Source: a virus
IMG/VR virus record: IMGVR_UViG_3300040770_000357
DNA length: 64,000 nucleotides
Direction: 5' to 3' (one strand)
The notes under the pieces are model-generated. The model had not been told where the DNA came from. It did not search any database and worked only from the letters and a program-made list of their open reading frames with translations. Positions within the stretch are counted from its first letter, which is position 1. Each line of letters opens with the position of its first letter. Positions 8,461 to 47,475 of this stretch are shown piece after piece. Both the position numbers and the translations under genes were made by a program.

Positions 8461-8613
8461 AATATTTGTTTTATTAATAAATTAGTTATATATTTGTATA
8501 ACAAACGCAAGCATGTTGTTTCAACGTGTTATCGGTAGTTTTCGGTACTCACGTAATAGAACCGATGGCAAACAGGGGAAGCGACCAGTGACTAATAGGA
8601 AAGACTAATAATT

Positions 8614-8817
8614 GGGGTTTTGGTGGAATTGGTATACACGGTGGGTTAATGGCCTACTGCACCTCATCACTGAAAAGTTAAAAGGTGTACAACTTTTAAT
8701 TGATAGGTGATGATAGCATACGATAAGGATTTAGGTGGGCACAGTAGGCATACTGATGAGAAGCTTAACTGATAAGGATTTGTGAAAAGCGTGGGGGTTC
8801 GAGTCCCTCATTCCCTA
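8614..8817 (+). ncRNA. tRNA-like RNA with large structured internal insert
   Basis: Leu-like D arm TGGTGGAATTGGTATACAC, T arm GGGGG-TTCGAGT-CCCTC, imperfect acceptor GGGGTTT/ATTCCCT, ~130 extra nt. Confidence 0.6.
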
Positions 8818-9055
8818 CAATTCACGTCAGCTGTGGCTTTTAGTATCTAGAGGCTCTTTGATAAACATTGAGGTGTTTACAGGTAAAAAACTAGCGGTTC
8901 GGAATTTTAACTCAAATATTTGTCATTGGCCCGAAGTCTTTCTAAACATTTAGGTGTTGTAGGTACTGGTCAGATTAGGATAAGTCAATGATAATCAAAT
9001 GTATGTTTAAGGAAAGAAATTTTTAAGTTTGTGACTAATAGGAAAGACTATTAAT

Positions 9056-9164
9056 GGAAGTGTAGCTCAGTCGGTAGAGCAGATTGCCAATAATGGTTTG
9101 AAAGACCAACCTACGTAAAGTAGGTGTAACAGTCGGGTCGTTGGTTCGAACCCAACCATTTCCA
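9056..9164 (+). tRNA. Atypical tRNA with 43-nt anticodon loop (identity undetermined)
   Basis: Good acceptor, D and T arms; stem GATTG/CAGTC encloses two extra hairpins. Confidence 0.7.
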
Positions 9165-21441: not shown

Positions 21442-21999
21442 ATGGATATTAAAGGAAAGTTAAGAAAAGCCTTGTTAAATGAGGGAAAACACACTGAAAA
21501 TGATTTTGGTTGTGTAATGGTTTATCTAAAGTATGATAAAAAAGATTGGTCAGCGTTACAAGGTTTAATCGATGAAGATGACTTGTATGACACTAAAGAT
21601 GATGTAGGTTATGGGCGAGAAATGAACCCACATTCAACTATTCTATATGGTCTTAGCGGAGATATTGAGGATAAGTTAGTTGAGGATAAAATTAACGCTG
21701 TGAAGTCACCATCACTTAAATTAGGTAAGGTTTCTTCATTCTCGAACGATAAGTATGATGTGTTGAAATTTGATATGGATGGTGAAACGATGCCGAATAT
21801 CAACAAAGATTTCGCTAAATTACCACATACTGATACCTATGGGTCTTACAAACCGCATTGTACTATTGCGTATGTTAAGAAGGGTCTGGCAAAAAAATAT
21901 ATTGAAATACTTAACGAAGTGGAACCTTTTGAGGTTGAAGCGGAGAAAATTGTTTACTCTAAGGTTAATGGTGATGAATTGGATTACATAATTAAATAA
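21442..21999 (+). CDS. 2H phosphoesterase (Acb1/57B or LigT/ThpR-like)
   Basis: Two HxT motifs: PHSTILYG and YKPHCTIAY. Confidence 0.82.
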   Translation: MDIKGKLRKALLNEGKHTENDFGCVMVYLKYDKKDWSALQGLIDEDDLYDTKDDVGYGREMNPHSTILYGLSGDIEDKLVEDKINAVKSPSLKLGKVSSFSNDKYDVLKFDMDGETMPNINKDFAKLPHTDTYGSYKPHCTIAYVKKGLAKKYIEILNEVEPFEVEAEKIVYSKVNGDELDYIIK

Positions 22000-37266: not shown

Positions 37267-38019
37267 ATGAATTTAAGTACACGAATTAAAGAATTTTATG
37301 AGGATAGAACAAAAGTATTGTTACCTCGAAAGATGATTACATGTATCCGTTTGGATGGTAAAGGTTTCAGTAAGTTAACAAAACTATTGGATAAACCTTT
37401 TGATGATGGTTTTAGCGATGATATGGATACAACGGCAATATACCTATGTGAAAATATTCAAGGGGCTAAATTCGCCTATACTCAATCCGATGAGATTACA
37501 ATTGTAATGACCGATTTTGACACATATGAAACCTCAGCTTGGTTTGATTATAGTGTTCAAAAAATGGTGAGTATTTCAGCTAGTTTAGCGACTGCAAAGT
37601 TCAACCAGTTACGAATATTTAGAGATATCAAATATTTAGAAAAACTAGCCATGTTTGATGCTAGAGTTTTCCAAGTACCTAATGTTGATGAAATGGTTAA
37701 TACTATAATTTGGCGACAACAAGATGCTAGTAGGAATAGTATAAGTATGGCATCAAGTGCATTTTACTCACACAATGCATTGGAAGGTAAATCTGGTAGT
37801 GATAAACAAGATATGTTGATGCTTAAGGGTATTAATTGGAACGATTATAAGACTAAATATAAGAGAGGTAGTGTTATTAAGAAAATATCAGTAGATGCTA
37901 TATCACCTATTGATGGTAGCCTTTCCACTAGAAATAAGTGGGTTGCTGATGTTGAGACACCTATTTTCACACAAGATAGAGATTATTTAATGGATTTAGT
38001 TGCAACTACATCAAAATAG
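37267..38019 (+). CDS. tRNA(His) guanylyltransferase Thg1-like
   Basis: RLDGKGFSK, YTQSDEIT, FDARVF, WRQQDASRNS, YKRG. Confidence 0.92.
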   Translation: MNLSTRIKEFYEDRTKVLLPRKMITCIRLDGKGFSKLTKLLDKPFDDGFSDDMDTTAIYLCENIQGAKFAYTQSDEITIVMTDFDTYETSAWFDYSVQKMVSISASLATAKFNQLRIFRDIKYLEKLAMFDARVFQVPNVDEMVNTIIWRQQDASRNSISMASSAFYSHNALEGKSGSDKQDMLMLKGINWNDYKTKYKRGSVIKKISVDAISPIDGSLSTRNKWVADVETPIFTQDRDYLMDLVATTSK

Positions 38020-38064: not shown

Positions 38065-39663
38065 ATGAGTAAAATAACGTTTAAAAAATTAACTGAAGAA
38101 GATAAGATTAGATTAACAAGTTCTTATATCAATAGAGCTGAATTAGGTTTGACAGTTGAGAAGTTAGCAATTAAAATTGGTTCTGAATTAAATGTGTCAG
38201 AGCGTACAATTAGAAAATGGTTTAATAAACTAAATCTTAAAGAAAAAGAAGAAACTGAGTCAGCCCAATACTTAAAAGCGAAAGCTAAAAAATTTGATGG
38301 TGGTAAGAAAAGGTTTATAATTACATGGGCACAAAATAATACCCCAGTACATAAAAAGTTTTTAAAGAACATAAAAACATATTCTAAATTCATTGATGCA
38401 GATATACATGTAATTGCTGGAAGGTATAGGAACCCAACATCAATTTGGTCAAATAACCAAAAAGACGAAGAATTTTGGGCTGATGAATTACAACCTTATT
38501 TAGATGCGAATAGACATGATATACATAAGTATGTATCTATTCTTTCAGATATTAAGATTCAACCAACAGCTATCAATCCAATGACTGGTATGCAATCTTT
38601 AAGTGGCGTTAATTCATGTATTTTTGGTTCACCTAGAGTACAGTTAGAAATGATACCAGTATTAGAGGCTAACAAACCTAAAATGATGTTAACCACTGGT
38701 GCGATAACTAAAAGCAATTATACTGACTCAAAGTCTGGTAAAGTTGGTGATTTCCATCATACTTTTGGGTTCGTAATTGTTGAGATTAAAGATGATGAAA
38801 CGTTTTTTGTTAGACAAGTTACTGCCGATGATAAATCTGGTGATTTTAGTGACTTATATAACAGAGTTTCTGATGGTAATGTAACTAGGTTAGACTCTAT
38901 AGCTGCTGTTATCTTAGGTGATATACATTATGGTCATCATGACCAACGTGTTTTAGATACTACAATGGGTTTGTTAGACATTTTAAAACCTAAGCATGTT
39001 ATTTTACATGACGTATTTGATGGTAATTCTATTAGTCATCATGAAATGAAAGACCCATTTGTTCAATATGGTAAAGAGTGTACTGGTACAAATGATTTAG
39101 GTAAGGAAGTTGATGTGATGCTTGATGGTTTGAAAGCGTTTGAGAAGTTTAAAAATGTTGTGATTGTTAGAAGTAATCACGATGATTTCTTAGATAGATG
39201 GCTTAAAAATGAGGATTGGAAGAAACAACCTACCTATAAAAACTCTAAGCTTTACATGCGTTATTCGTATATGTTACTAGGACAATACGCTGACGACCCT
39301 TATAATGTTAAAGGTGTTATACCTACGTTAATTAACGAGAGATACCCTAAATTCATCACACTTGGTCGAAGTGCATCTTATTTGGTTAAGAATTGGGAGT
39401 TAGGCCAACATGGTGATATTGGTTCTAATGGTAGTAGAGGTTCATTGTTACAGTTTCGTAAACTTAATACAAAGATTATAGTTGGACATTACCATTCTCC
39501 TGGACGTAAAGATGGTGCTTTATCGGTTGGAACATCAACACATTTAAGGGTTGGGTATAATAAAGGTGCGTCTTCTTGGTTACAATCACATATTATAATT
39601 CACCAAGATGCTCGCTCACAACACATTAACATGATTGATGGGGAATATACTACATTTATATAA
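38065..39663 (+). CDS. N-terminal HTH + calcineurin-like metallophosphoesterase (resembles T5 A1-type proteins)
   Basis: GDIHYG, HDVFDG, RSNHDD, GQHG, GHYHS; SERTIRKW HTH. Confidence 0.75.
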   Translation: MSKITFKKLTEEDKIRLTSSYINRAELGLTVEKLAIKIGSELNVSERTIRKWFNKLNLKEKEETESAQYLKAKAKKFDGGKKRFIITWAQNNTPVHKKFLKNIKTYSKFIDADIHVIAGRYRNPTSIWSNNQKDEEFWADELQPYLDANRHDIHKYVSILSDIKIQPTAINPMTGMQSLSGVNSCIFGSPRVQLEMIPVLEANKPKMMLTTGAITKSNYTDSKSGKVGDFHHTFGFVIVEIKDDETFFVRQVTADDKSGDFSDLYNRVSDGNVTRLDSIAAVILGDIHYGHHDQRVLDTTMGLLDILKPKHVILHDVFDGNSISHHEMKDPFVQYGKECTGTNDLGKEVDVMLDGLKAFEKFKNVVIVRSNHDDFLDRWLKNEDWKKQPTYKNSKLYMRYSYMLLGQYADDPYNVKGVIPTLINERYPKFITLGRSASYLVKNWELGQHGDIGSNGSRGSLLQFRKLNTKIIVGHYHSPGRKDGALSVGTSTHLRVGYNKGASSWLQSHIIIHQDARSQHINMIDGEYTTFI

Positions 39664-44401: not shown

Positions 44402-44929
44402 ATGAAAAAAATAACAAAACTTAGTGTATTCGATTTCGATGGGACACTAGTTAAATCTCCAACACCAGAAAATGGTAAAGAGATTTACAAAACAAAAACT
44501 GGTAATGATTGGCCATATATTGGTTGGTTCAGTAAACATGAATCATTGGATTTAAATATCTTTGATATCGAAACAATTGACGATGTTATAGTTGACTACG
44601 AAAGAGAGGCTGCAAGTAAGTCATCTGTTGTTGTTATGTTAACTGGTAGAATACTTAAGCTATCTGAACATGTTAAAATTGTTTTGGGTGCTAAAGGACT
44701 TGTGTTTGATGAATACGAATTTAATAGAGGTGGTTCAACAGAAATCTCTAAAATGAGAACAATGGATAAATTATTGTTTAAATATAAAGATGTTATTGAA
44801 GTTGAGCTTTGGGATGACCGTTTACCCCATATACCAATTTTTGAGCAATGGGGTAAGGCTCACGTACTTAGTGGTCGATTAAAAGACTTTAAAGTTAATG
44901 TTGTCCTTGGATGGGATGGTGATGAATAA
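44402..44929 (+). CDS. HAD domain protein, Swiss-Army-Knife RNA-repair-like
   Basis: VFDFDGTLVKSP, MLTGR, ELWDDRLPH. Confidence 0.75.
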   Translation: MKKITKLSVFDFDGTLVKSPTPENGKEIYKTKTGNDWPYIGWFSKHESLDLNIFDIETIDDVIVDYEREAASKSSVVVMLTGRILKLSEHVKIVLGAKGLVFDEYEFNRGGSTEISKMRTMDKLLFKYKDVIEVELWDDRLPHIPIFEQWGKAHVLSGRLKDFKVNVVLGWDGDE

Positions 44930-44991: not shown

Positions 44992-46920
44992 ATGAAAGAA
45001 GAAAAAATAAAAATTGGTGATATTGTAGAAGGTAAACTACAATTTAACCAAAGTGGTTCAGCCTACTTGGTAAGCACAGATTTACCAAAAGACATATATT
45101 TGAATAAGCATAACACAAATAAAGCGTTACATTTAGATATAGTAAAAATAAAAGTGATTAGCGGTAATGGTCGTTCAATCGAAGGTGAGGTTACTGAGAT
45201 AGTAACAAGGTTTAAAGATGAATTTGTTGGGTCATTACAAATAACCCCAAAACATGCATTTTTTGTTGCAGATAGTAATAAGATTTCAGTTGATTTTTTC
45301 ATACCATTAGACAAACTGATGGGTGCTACTGATGGTCAGAAAGTTATTGTTAAACTAACTACATGGAAAGACACGGCAAAGAATCCTAACGGTGAAGTCG
45401 TAAAAATACTTGGTGATGCTGGTGAGTATGAAACAGAAATACATGCAATCTTAGAGGAATATGGTTTACCATACGATTTTGAAGAAGAAGTTCTTTTAGA
45501 GTCAGAAGCAATTTCGTCAGAGATTACACAATCTGAGATAGATAAACGTAGAGATATGAGAGGTATCTTGACCTTTACGATTGACCCAGTTGATGCAAAA
45601 GATTTTGATGATGCGCTAAGTGTTGAATGGATTAATGGTGAGTTATTTGTTGGGGTACATATTGCCGATGTATCACATTATCTAGAACAAGACACTGAAT
45701 TAGATAAAGAAGCATATACCAGAGGAACTTCGGTTTACTTAGTTGATAGATGTATCCCTATGCTTCCAGAGAGGCTATCTAATGGATTATGTAGCCTTAG
45801 ACCAATGGAAGACAAGCTATGTTTTTCAGCAGTCTTTAAACTGGATAGAAAAGGTAAAGTATTAGAAGAATGGTTTGGTAAAACTGTCATTAATTCTGAC
45901 CATAGGTTTTCATATGAAGAAGCTCAAAAAATAATTGAGGGTGATTCTAGTTTTATGACAACAAACATTAGGGAACTAAGTTCTGCAATTAGGGAATTAG
46001 ATAAAATTGCGAAACAAATGCGTAAAGAACGTTTGATTGAAGGTTCTATCTCATTTGATAAACAAGAGGTTAAGTTTCAGTTAGATGAAGGTAATAAACC
46101 AGTTGGGGTTATTTTAAAGACATCTAAGGATGCCAATAAATTAATCGAGGAATATATGTTATTAGCTAATAAACATGTTGCTCAATTTGTTAATAGAAAA
46201 GGATTGCCAATGGTAAATCGTTCACACGATAAACCTAATGAAGTTAAACTAGATTCCCTTAAGGAATTTATTAAACAATTTGGATATGTTATCAAGACAG
46301 ATAATCCAATGGAAATCACACGCACACTTAATAAGTTATTGACAGATGTTAAGGGTTCACCAGAATCTAGTATGATTGAAACGTTAGTAATAAGAACTAT
46401 GCAGAAAGCGAATTACTCTACAAAAAATATAGGACATTATGGTTTAGGGTTTAAAGATTACGCTCATTTCACAAGTCCAATTAGGAGATATCCAGATGTA
46501 ATCGTTCATAGGTTATTAGCTACATATTTAAATGAAAAATCTTCACCTAATCTTGGGAAATTAGAAAACAAATGCTTACATTTGTCGGAACGTGAGAAAA
46601 AAGCGCAAAAAGCAGAGAGAGAGTCTATCAAATACATGCAATGTATTTATATGTCTGACCATATTGGTATGGTTTATAAAGGAATTGTAACATCTATTGC
46701 TGATTTTGGAATTTTTGTTGAAATAAAAGAAACTAACTGTGAGGGATTTGTTAGGTTAGCTGAAATAGATGGTGATACGTTCACTTCTGACCCAGCTAAT
46801 TATTGTGTTAAAGGGTTTAATACTGGTATTACTATAAGTCTTGGTGATGAAGTTGTTATTGTGGTTAAATCAGTTGATATTGAAAAGAAAAATATTAATT
46901 TAACATTATTAAAATTATAA
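44992..46920 (+). CDS. rnr: Ribonuclease R
   Basis: TIDPVDAKDFDDA, GTSVYL, AHFTSPIRRYPD, C-terminal S1 domain. Confidence 0.95.
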   Translation: MKEEKIKIGDIVEGKLQFNQSGSAYLVSTDLPKDIYLNKHNTNKALHLDIVKIKVISGNGRSIEGEVTEIVTRFKDEFVGSLQITPKHAFFVADSNKISVDFFIPLDKLMGATDGQKVIVKLTTWKDTAKNPNGEVVKILGDAGEYETEIHAILEEYGLPYDFEEEVLLESEAISSEITQSEIDKRRDMRGILTFTIDPVDAKDFDDALSVEWINGELFVGVHIADVSHYLEQDTELDKEAYTRGTSVYLVDRCIPMLPERLSNGLCSLRPMEDKLCFSAVFKLDRKGKVLEEWFGKTVINSDHRFSYEEAQKIIEGDSSFMTTNIRELSSAIRELDKIAKQMRKERLIEGSISFDKQEVKFQLDEGNKPVGVILKTSKDANKLIEEYMLLANKHVAQFVNRKGLPMVNRSHDKPNEVKLDSLKEFIKQFGYVIKTDNPMEITRTLNKLLTDVKGSPESSMIETLVIRTMQKANYSTKNIGHYGLGFKDYAHFTSPIRRYPDVIVHRLLATYLNEKSSPNLGKLENKCLHLSEREKKAQKAERESIKYMQCIYMSDHIGMVYKGIVTSIADFGIFVEIKETNCEGFVRLAEIDGDTFTSDPANYCVKGFNTGITISLGDEVVIVVKSVDIEKKNINLTLLKL

Positions 46921-46959
46921 ATAGTTGCATCTACCAATATAGTTAAGTATATTTGTAGA

Positions 46960-47450
46960 AGAAATAAAGGCTAAACATTGAACCTTTGTGAATATATTGC
47001 CTTAATGTAGTTCTGAATTGGCTGAACTATTATTCACATAAAGATATCACCCACGAATTGACGTGGGGTTATTAAGAACGGCTGGAAGGTGATACGGATG
47101 CTGAAGTGTACGAACGTGAGTACTTAGTCCGAGCACTGTAATAATAGAGTAATCTTGAGCGTGCCCTCTCCCTTTGAGAAAGGAGAAAGTATCTGAACAA
47201 CCCTAATAAGGTTGGGTAACACAGTGTACAGGTAACGAATGAGCGACTATCCGTGAGGACGTTGGGCTATTAGTTAAACATACATAAGAAAAGGTGTCAA
47301 AGCACAGCTCTATGCTAAGATGTATGTAAATGGAAGTAAGCTTTAGGCTTCTAATAGTTTTCTCAGCAAGTAGTTAATTAACTGCGTGACCCTACTCTTG
47401 TCATGAACGTCAGATTGCAAATGTGACAGTAGTGACAAGAAAGAGGGTGC
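46960..47450 (+). ncRNA. Large structured RNA of unknown family
   Basis: ORF-free ~490 nt after promoter; >10 helices visible by eye. Confidence 0.7.
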
Positions 47451-47475
47451 TAATAAATTATTTAAAAATATTGTT

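Follow-up and report, generated by a model that had tools for sequence, protein, structure and literature searches.

The Lak megaphages of Prevotella carry transfer RNA (tRNA) genes (Tyr, Phe, Thr, Gly) interrupted by "enigmatic" introns, the sequence of which is highly conserved between phages (Devoto et al. 2019, PMC6784885). Group I introns are likewise found in the anticodon loops of bacterial and phage tRNAs, that of tRNA-Leu UAA being an example (review PMC3984707). Unexplained inserts in tRNA genes are already known from large phages. Described here is an RNA gene located at positions 9056-9164 on the plus strand of a 64,000-nucleotide stretch of viral DNA, namely IMG/VR record IMGVR_UViG_3300040770_000357, the whole of which is referred to as the window. 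On the basis of its predicted fold, the encoded RNA is a near-perfect tRNA in which the anticodon loop has been swapped for a T-shaped, two-hairpin module. The case is unusually clean: a tiny insert sits in an otherwise undamaged tRNA body and, in three unrelated phages, is held to a tighter sequence constraint than the stems of that body.

The coordinates and anatomy put forward in the original prediction, which had been made from the sequence alone, are borne out by the sequence, the Rfam match, and the fold. The individual features are listed in Table 1. The Rfam tRNA model matches the gene with a score of 45.9 bits (gathering score 29) and an E value of 1.4e-6 for the whole window. The alignment spans model positions 1-71, with 49 nt handled as an insertion in the anticodon arm. 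Residues U8 and A9 lie between the acceptor stem and the D arm, A26 follows the D arm, and the conserved tertiary features are readable, including G18 G19, the T-loop UUCGAAC, and the G15-C48 pair. ARAGORN gives no call for the gene. The anticodon stem closes not on the usual 7-nt loop, with its U33 and purine 37, but on a loop of 43 nt (40-42 in the homologues described below). The minimum free energy (MFE) fold is a cloverleaf with two hairpins in this loop, has a z-score of -3.46, and was matched in stability by none of 200 shuffled sequences. The three-way junction is taken from this fold, and RNAalifold independently predicts the same structure. Note that hairpin 1 can be drawn in two ways, either with 6 bp and a GAA triloop, which is the MFE choice, or with 4 bp and the 7-nt loop UUGAAAG. 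In the RNAalifold structure, hairpin 2 is additionally closed by an invariant A-U pair, such that hairpins 1 and 2 abut without a linker. In this model the two hairpins could stack coaxially, and they probably form a crossbar of ∼12 bp.

Table 1. Positions of the RNA gene, its parts, its flanking signals, and other window genes discussed in the text. Numbering is that of the window unless a contig is named.
Feature	Position	Strand	Remarks
TAnnTTTG match, TAAGTTTG	9024-9031	+	25 nt upstream of the mature 5' end; putative promoter
5' leader hairpin	9031-9053	+	stem 9037-9041 / 9048-9052, 5 bp, loop GAAAGA; ends 3 nt before +1
Leader hairpins in three phages	window 8588-8613, 9031-9055; L202 874-900, 1288-1314; L203 (-) ~1079-1105
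tRNA-shaped gene	9056-9164	+	109 nt, CCA not encoded; Rfam RF00005
Acceptor stem GGAAGUG / CAUUUCC	9056-9062 / 9157-9163	+	one G.U pair; discriminator A9164
D arm GCUC-AGUCGGUA-GAGC	9065-9080	+	contains G18 G19; stem invariant in three homologues
Anticodon stem GAUUG / CAGUC	9082-9086 / 9130-9134	+	5 bp; invariant in three homologues
43-nt loop, CCAATAA + TGGTTTGAAAGACCA + A + CCTAC-GTAAA-GTAGG + TGTAA	9087-9129	+	
Junction linker 1, CCAAUAA	9087-9093	+	invariant (alignment, RNAalifold)
Hairpin 1, UGGUUU-GAA-AGACCA	9094-9108	+	MFE and RNAalifold
Hairpin 2, ACCUAC-GUAAA-GUAGGU	9109-9125	+	RNAalifold; basal A-U, C-G, C-G invariant
Junction linker 2, GUAA (UGUAA if U9125 is unpaired)	9126-9129	+	invariant
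Variable loop GGGUC	9135-9139	+	
T arm GUUGG-UUCGAAC-CCAAC	9140-9156	+	canonical T loop
13-mer AGTGATTATTAAA	9172-9184	+	also L003 832-844, 29 nt downstream of the homologue
2H phosphoesterase (2'-5' RNA ligase superfamily)	21442-21999		
Thg1-like 3'-5' polymerase	37267-38019		
HAD_SAK_1 domain protein	44402-44929		
RNase R/II-like enzyme	44992-46920		

Two homologues were recovered from IMG/VR with an 18-mer that covers the anticodon stem and the first part of the loop. One lies in a complete 157-kb phage genome (L002, genome G030) and the other in a 35-kb fragment (L003, G031, IMGVR_UViG_3300000730_000108). The three carrier contigs have almost no proteins in common near the element and few overall (tblastx, blastp). 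Only three substitutions separate the three sequences over the region that begins with the D arm and closes with the 3' half of the anticodon stem, and that includes the linkers, hairpin 1, and the base of hairpin 2. Two of these are in hairpin 1, where the loop is GGA in L002 and a U.G pair is changed to U-A. The acceptor stem, the T stem, and the distal portion of hairpin 2 are almost wholly different in sequence, with the pairing always kept. In the homologues the hairpin 2 stem reads CCUC/GAGG or CCUCU/AGGGG, and its distal stem and loop are variable and covary. All 94 cells of the three-sequence alignment pair, as compared with ∼50% when the partners are slid. Changes on both sides of a pair are seen in 10 of the 32 pairs, against 3.6 ± 1.5 in shuffles, and are distributed over the acceptor stem (five of seven pairs), the T stem (three of five), and hairpin 2 (two). 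The invariance of the anticodon stem is noteworthy, since in canonical tRNA-Phe genes this stem varies freely from one related phage to the next.

Diverged yet compensated stems on otherwise unrelated contigs argue for an old, selected RNA gene rather than a recent copy, and the three sequences indicate that selection holds the insert more tightly than it holds the body stems. Long divergence combined with selection on the sequence of the insert is the reverse of what would be expected for an intron that is discarded. Indeed, constraint of this kind in three unrelated phages suggests that the insert itself has a function and is not spliced-out junk. A covariance model, R1, was built from the three sequences and scores the window copy, itself a training sequence, at 124.7 bits. 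Exact and gapped pattern scans of IMG/VR, metagenome contigs, and GTDB genomes (one per prokaryotic species) gave no further family members, the extra matches being chance matches in coding DNA, and the insert was unmatched in GenBank phages. The pattern for an insert-less allele, GGTAGAGCAGATTG-N7-CAGTC, matched only two coding sequences in IMG/VR, and no canonical tRNA with the same anticodon stem was found there. The protein encoded upstream of the window element has no IMG/VR relatives.

Two explanations for the enlarged loop had been offered in the original prediction, a small intron removed with the aid of phage proteins and a non-decoding tRNA mimic. The mimic fits the evidence better, and the protein-spliced intron is kept as a rival that we regard as possible though rather unlikely. 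According to the latter, an endonuclease of the phage or host would cut the loop twice, and a T4-type RNA ligase would reseal it. The UAA direct repeats bracketing a 36-nt segment are compatible with such a scheme, as removal of the 36 nt between them would yield the loop CCAAUAA (anticodon AAU). Alternatively, cutting at position 33/34 would yield CCUGUAA (anticodon UGU, Thr). This second loop would be the product ending in TGTAA that had been anticipated earlier, and it carries C33. Neither product contains U33, and either might thereby resist anticodon nucleases. In fact, none of the eight possible single excisions that leave a 7-nt loop restores U33, the products being GGUGUAA, CGUGUAA, CCUGUAA, CCAGUAA, and CCAAUAA, and this speaks against splicing, as do the conservation of the insert beyond that of the exon stems and the failure to find an insert-less allele. 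On the other hand, tRNAs of canonical length that lack U33 recur in related phages, and in one of them a tRNA-like gene, L183, presents CCUGUAA as one contiguous loop, with a T-arm-like insert after it. The genome G030 already carries canonical tRNAs for Thr(UGU) and Ile(GAU), a further point against splicing.

A T4-type RNA ligase (PF09414), of the kind that an intron of this type would require, was present in each of the four complete genomes that were searched, namely G030 and three relatives, and in the carrier G030 it lies ∼2 kb from the element; no RNA ligase is encoded in the window. The archaeal-type endonuclease (tRNA_int_endo, PF01974) and RtcB are both absent from the five carrier or related phage records, and PF01974 was also not found in the window open reading frames (ORFs) scanned. 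The 2H phosphoesterase and the HAD_SAK_1 domain protein of the window could heal RNA ends, and the Thg1-like enzyme and RNase R/II-like protein encoded there are also in keeping with splicing. A more elaborate version, in which a hairpin-specific endonuclease and the phage T4-type ligase would deliberately produce a U33-less tRNA immune to host anticodon nucleases, such that splicing would serve as counter-defense, is in our estimation unlikely.

The Lak introns are a precedent for such an intron, and what they share with the element is a large phage and a tRNA anticodon loop enlarged by a highly conserved insert that does not self-splice and has no Rfam match. The hosts of the Lak phages are Bacteroidota, and only the TAnnTTTG box described below suggests such a host for the window phage. 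The Lak inserts are 79-114 nt in length, as compared with 36-43 nt here, and adjoin position 37/38 of otherwise canonical U33 loops in which the anticodon is clear (CUGUA.., CUGAA.., CUUGU..), whereas the flanks of the present insert are CC... and ...UGUAA. Unlike the situation in the Lak tRNAs, no canonical loop remains once the insert is removed. Furthermore, the Lak inserts contain a T-arm or minihelix-like module, which is missing from the two plain hairpins observed here, neither of which has a GTTCRA-type loop.

Introns of the bulge-helix-bulge (BHB) type, which are processed by EndA/Sen in archaea and eukaryotes, are similar in being small anticodon-loop inserts unable to self-splice. 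The present element differs from them in its bacterial-phage context, in the absence, noted above, of tRNA_int_endo and RtcB from the carrier and related phage genomes, and in the absence of a conserved BHB motif, a strict 3-4-3 scan having returned two spurious T-arm candidates in the window and none in the homologues. Group I tRNA introns share with the element the site of insertion, the anticodon loop of a bacterial-type tRNA, but their core (P3-P9) needs ∼200 nt or more, and the insert is 43 nt in length. No intron or ribozyme in Rfam matched the 57-nt payload or the 800-nt region at E values up to 10, and this includes the self-cleaving ribozymes (hammerhead, twister, pistol, and others). 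A hammerhead-like junction was considered and rejected, for the linkers are CCAAUAA and GUAA rather than CUGAUGA and GAAA. Likewise rejected was AAUAAUGG as a shared splice or processing motif; its second example, L182, proved to be a tRNA-Phe remnant ahead of a genuine tRNA-Phe, and it is the acceptor stem of the latter that begins at that GG.

The tRNA from which the body may be derived was sought by running R1 over 31 whole records of related jumbo phages, which had been found through a T5 A1-like "DNA transfer protein" encoded at window positions 38065-39663. The top canonical match is tRNA-Phe(GAA) in all 12 records checked. When 209 distinct tRNAs were ranked by the similarity of their bodies, with the anticodon arm left out, Phe accounted for 10 of the top 20; the set is partly biased given that many of its loci were fetched as best R1 matches or by an acceptor/D-arm pattern. 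The best blastn matches to positions 1-33 include many phage tRNA-Phe genes. In one canonical tRNA-Phe(GAA) from another IMG/VR phage (L207), the acceptor stem is identical and the D arm differs at a single loop base. The 7-nt version of the hairpin 1 loop, UUGAAAG, offers U33, GAA, and A37, as a tRNA-Phe anticodon loop does, and is similar to canonical Phe arms, of which AUGGA-CUGAAAA-UCCAU is one. In L002 the corresponding loop is UUGGAAA, with a Ser-like GGA, and the variable loop differs from that of tRNA-Phe, reading GGGUC or AGGUC in place of GUGUC. Descent from tRNA-Phe, the closest of the class I elongator tRNAs, is likely though not certain.

A Phe-like body with discriminator A73 raises the question of whether the RNA is a working tRNA-Phe, with hairpin 1 as its real anticodon arm (GAA), reached either by an alternative fold, in which hairpin 2 would be a long variable arm, or by removal of both flanks. 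The nearness of the body to tRNA-Phe, the anticodon-like loop, and the lack of a canonical tRNA-Phe in the window tRNA array (ARAGORN) are consistent with this. The GAA triplet is situated, however, in a side hairpin beyond a full 5-bp anticodon stem, and simple geometric reasoning would place it too far away for decoding in the A site while the acceptor end occupies the peptidyl-transferase center. Additionally, giving up the anticodon stem costs 3.3 kcal/mol relative to the designed structure and 7.9 kcal/mol relative to the MFE fold, the L002 homologue with GGA (Ser) on the same class I body would miscode, and removal of both flanks would require two excisions and two ligations. The complete genome G030 contains 23 canonical tRNAs besides the element, including Phe(GAA), Thr(UGU), Ile(GAU), and Ser, and thus the possibility that the element replaces tRNA-Phe in its carriers was rejected. 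Overall, a decoding tRNA-Phe is improbable. Among the 23 tRNAs of G030 is one with a CUA anticodon (143040-143111 on the minus strand, L205 2241-2312), a candidate amber suppressor that hints at TAG recoding.

The sequences flanking the gene bear on its expression. Upstream is a match to TAnnTTTG, the -7 box of Bacteroidota promoters. The window is enriched in this motif (133 copies versus 108 ± 10 in shuffles), and many of the plus-strand copies lie from a few to ∼40 nt upstream of listed ORF or RNA starts. Between this box and the mature 5' end is the leader hairpin. A 20-mer of the leader has exactly two copies in the window, the second at 8588-8607 ahead of another odd RNA at 8614, and the leader motif is also present 7 nt upstream of other insert-bearing tRNA-like genes in the related phages G014 and G023. 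Across three phages 96% of the cells of the leader hairpin are paired, one pair covaries (A-U to C-G), and the hairpin ends 3-7 nt before the RNA 5' ends. The leader could mark the odd RNAs specifically, as a signal for processing or for the binding of a protein; a role as a sigma-70 promoter was rejected on account of unsuitable spacing. The 13-mer AGTGATTATTAAA is found downstream of both the window copy and the L003 copy, and its length as a longest common substring was reached by one of 300 shuffles. It resembles the first 10 nt of the leader, GTGAYTAWTA, exact copies of which occur in the window only at 8588, 9031, and 9173, all flanking the two odd RNAs. Pairing of the 13-mer with linker 1 was rejected, as six A-U pairs at most could form.

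These signals also weigh on whether the gene is simply a decaying tRNA pseudogene or functionless recombination debris between tRNA genes. Remnants of tRNAs do exist in related phages, as exemplified by L182, in which a tRNA-Phe 5' fragment is fused upstream of a real tRNA-Phe. For the present element, every helix is kept in three homologues from otherwise unrelated contigs, with 10 double-sided changes and an invariant junction, and the gene is preceded by a promoter-like box of its own and by a leader hairpin that is conserved. Decay is, accordingly, highly improbable.

With moderate confidence, we favor an unspliced, non-decoding tRNA scaffold that carries a functional three-way junction as its payload. 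This interpretation is preferred over the intron because the insert outconserves the body stems, U33 cannot be restored, no insert-less allele was found, no conserved BHB motif was seen, EndA and RtcB are absent from the carrier and related genomes searched, and G030 possesses a full set of canonical tRNAs. In such a scheme, a Bacteroidota-type promoter of its own would drive transcription of the gene, with a short hairpin as leader, and the RNA would be matured as any tRNA is, by RNase P, 3' trimming, and CCA addition. The tRNA body, by way of its acceptor stem, G18 G19 D arm, T loop, G15-C48 pair, and discriminator A, would supply stability and recognition. The 40-43-nt three-way junction would be the working part and would bind a conserved partner. 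The most likely partner is a tRNA-directed host enzyme, for example an anticodon nuclease or an enzyme that binds anticodon loops, for which the RNA would act as a decoy or competitive inhibitor; this version accounts for roughly half of the probability that we assign to the scaffold as a whole. An enzyme of this type is favored because of the RNA-repair-type genes in the window, among them one for HAD_SAK_1, a domain family named after RNA-repair proteins, and because of the anticodon-like loop of hairpin 1. For the idea, raised in the original prediction, that the RNA might titrate or evade anticodon nucleases, the Thg1-like, 2H phosphoesterase, and HAD_SAK_1 genes and the Phe-like loop are circumstantial support. 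Beside the RNA-repair-type set, the window also contains NAD-related genes, namely NAMPT, PRPP synthase, NUDIX, NADAR, Macro, and SIR2.

Several points weigh against a non-decoding scaffold aimed at such an enzyme. The family has three members, and thus the invariant helices, the anticodon stem and hairpin 1, have no support from covariation. No gene neighbor is common to the three carriers, and no partner protein emerges from them. What looks like a Phe loop could be no more than a GNA triloop capping a 6-bp stem, the form preferred in the MFE fold, and we know of no tRNA-Phe-specific anticodon nuclease. Finally, the tRNAs of canonical length without U33 in this phage group weaken the argument that a missing U33 rules against splicing.

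Non-decoding RNAs that resemble tRNAs include transfer-messenger RNA (tmRNA), the stable RNAs C and D of the T4 tRNA cluster, and bacterial YrlA. As in these, a tRNA-like acceptor and T domain bears another domain, and the genes are near tRNA genes. The element is unlike tmRNA and its kin in having a complete D arm and anticodon stem, in lacking a conserved tag frame, and in being much smaller. The topology of YrlA is permuted, which is not true of the element, and no Rfam model of this kind matches it. An engineered "tRNA scaffold" for the expression of structured RNAs was reportedly devised by Ponchon and Dardel in 2007. The principle is the same, a structured module in place of the anticodon loop and an intact tRNA that provides processing and stability, but that scaffold is a laboratory design, and the arrangement observed here is natural and conserved. 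As judged from its sequence, the element lacks the features that define decoding tRNAs, group I and BHB introns, Lak-type inserts, and tmRNA, and by analogy it would function most like the engineered scaffold and the natural tRNA-like RNAs.

The scaffold might instead serve some purpose other than that of a decoy, for example as a ribosome-rescue partner, as a processing signal for neighboring RNAs, or as the RNA subunit of a phage ribonucleoprotein. The arrangement in L003 is suggestive in this regard, for there a permuted tmRNA gene precedes the element at a distance of 36 nt, apparently in one transcription unit that closes, as read from the sequence, with a terminator-like hairpin. Similarly, the window element follows another odd tRNA-like RNA with the same leader, and the sequence GAAAG is common to the leader loop GAAAGA and the hairpin 1 loop, such that one hairpin-binding protein could recognize both. 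The L002 element, however, stands alone between protein genes, no protein partner emerged, and no tag-like frame is conserved across the insert, the frames differing among the homologues as read from their sequences. A tag peptide, as in a mini-tmRNA, was rejected given that the frame GCC-AAU-AAU... meets a stop in the window copy alone and continues in L002 and L003. We consider a role of this sort doubtful. The L003 tmRNA gene (436-658 on the plus strand) is a two-piece form that matches Rfam RF04321 with 52.8 bits versus a gathering score of 47. The sequence TAAATTTG precedes it, ARAGORN gives no call, and a hairpin, GGGAGU-GCGAAAA-ACUCCC, is positioned between the tmRNA and the element homologue.

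The second odd RNA of the window, at 8614-8819 on the plus strand, is 205 nt in length. It combines a D arm of the tRNA-Leu type, GUGGAAUUGGUAUACAC, and a canonical T arm with an acceptor stem in which two U.U pairs are mismatched, a stem-loop that looks intact, GUGGG-UUAAUGG-CCUAC, and ∼135 nt of extra structure. Beyond the T arm there is no Rfam match. A related phage (G006) may contain a shorter homologue, L190. It had been noted at the outset that the insert of this RNA shares TAATGG and the CCTAC/GTAGG stem with the element. Both are present, but the hairpin 2 stem differs in the homologues of the element. The sharing is treated here as coincidence because a common 6-mer between stretches of 43 and 200 nt is expected by chance (hand arithmetic) and because the stem is not conserved.

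In the related jumbo phages, many tRNA bodies bear a structured module within the anticodon arm or close to it. In L181 (95 nt) there is a compact three-way junction with two tiny-looped hairpins (GACG and AAA), and in L183 (115 nt) the insert that follows the CCUGUAA loop has its own T-arm-like hairpin and is Lak-like. Further examples are L180 (102 nt), L191 (117 nt), L192 (133 nt), and L193 (161 nt). A family of tRNA-like genes of 98-99 nt is present in six related jumbo phages (L184-L189, for instance L202 1315-1413). Its members display a class II-like D arm and a 9-bp "anticodon" arm, which encloses a 3-bp hairpin with the loop GAAGUACNA and has the bulge AACAA. Compensatory changes are visible by eye, and ARAGORN calls these genes tRNA-??? 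with a 4-nt anticodon. They were rejected as positional homologues of the element, for the G014 locus lies between homologues of RNase R and a sigma factor and corresponds to 46.9-47.8 kb of the window rather than to 8.6-9.2 kb; the leader motif alone is common to both. In the window itself, an ORF-free gap of ∼550 nt (46920-47475, plus strand) follows the RNase R/II-like gene, with TATATTTG preceding at 46948. The syntenic gap in G014 contains two leader-preceded tRNA-like RNAs and a tRNA-Lys, and the window gap may likewise encode a further non-coding RNA.

Transfer RNAs of canonical length with G33 are also encoded in this phage group (L152 1868-1938; L161 422-493, L188 32-103, and L203 811-883, the last three on the minus strand). 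They include Pro(UGG) with the loop CGUGGAG in three phages and Gln(UUG) with the loop CGUUGAG, and 8-nt loops, CUAGACGG, are observed as well. From these sequences, anticodon loops without U33 seem to recur in the group.

Taken with the other modified tRNA bodies, the element appears to represent one conserved type of payload in a recurrent design of these phages, a tRNA scaffold with a variable payload. Were the RNA to be spliced after all, it would constitute a case of protein-dependent tRNA splicing in the bacterial world. Should it instead inhibit a tRNA-directed host enzyme or serve as its decoy, it would be an anti-defense tool made of RNA and a natural counterpart of the laboratory tRNA scaffold.

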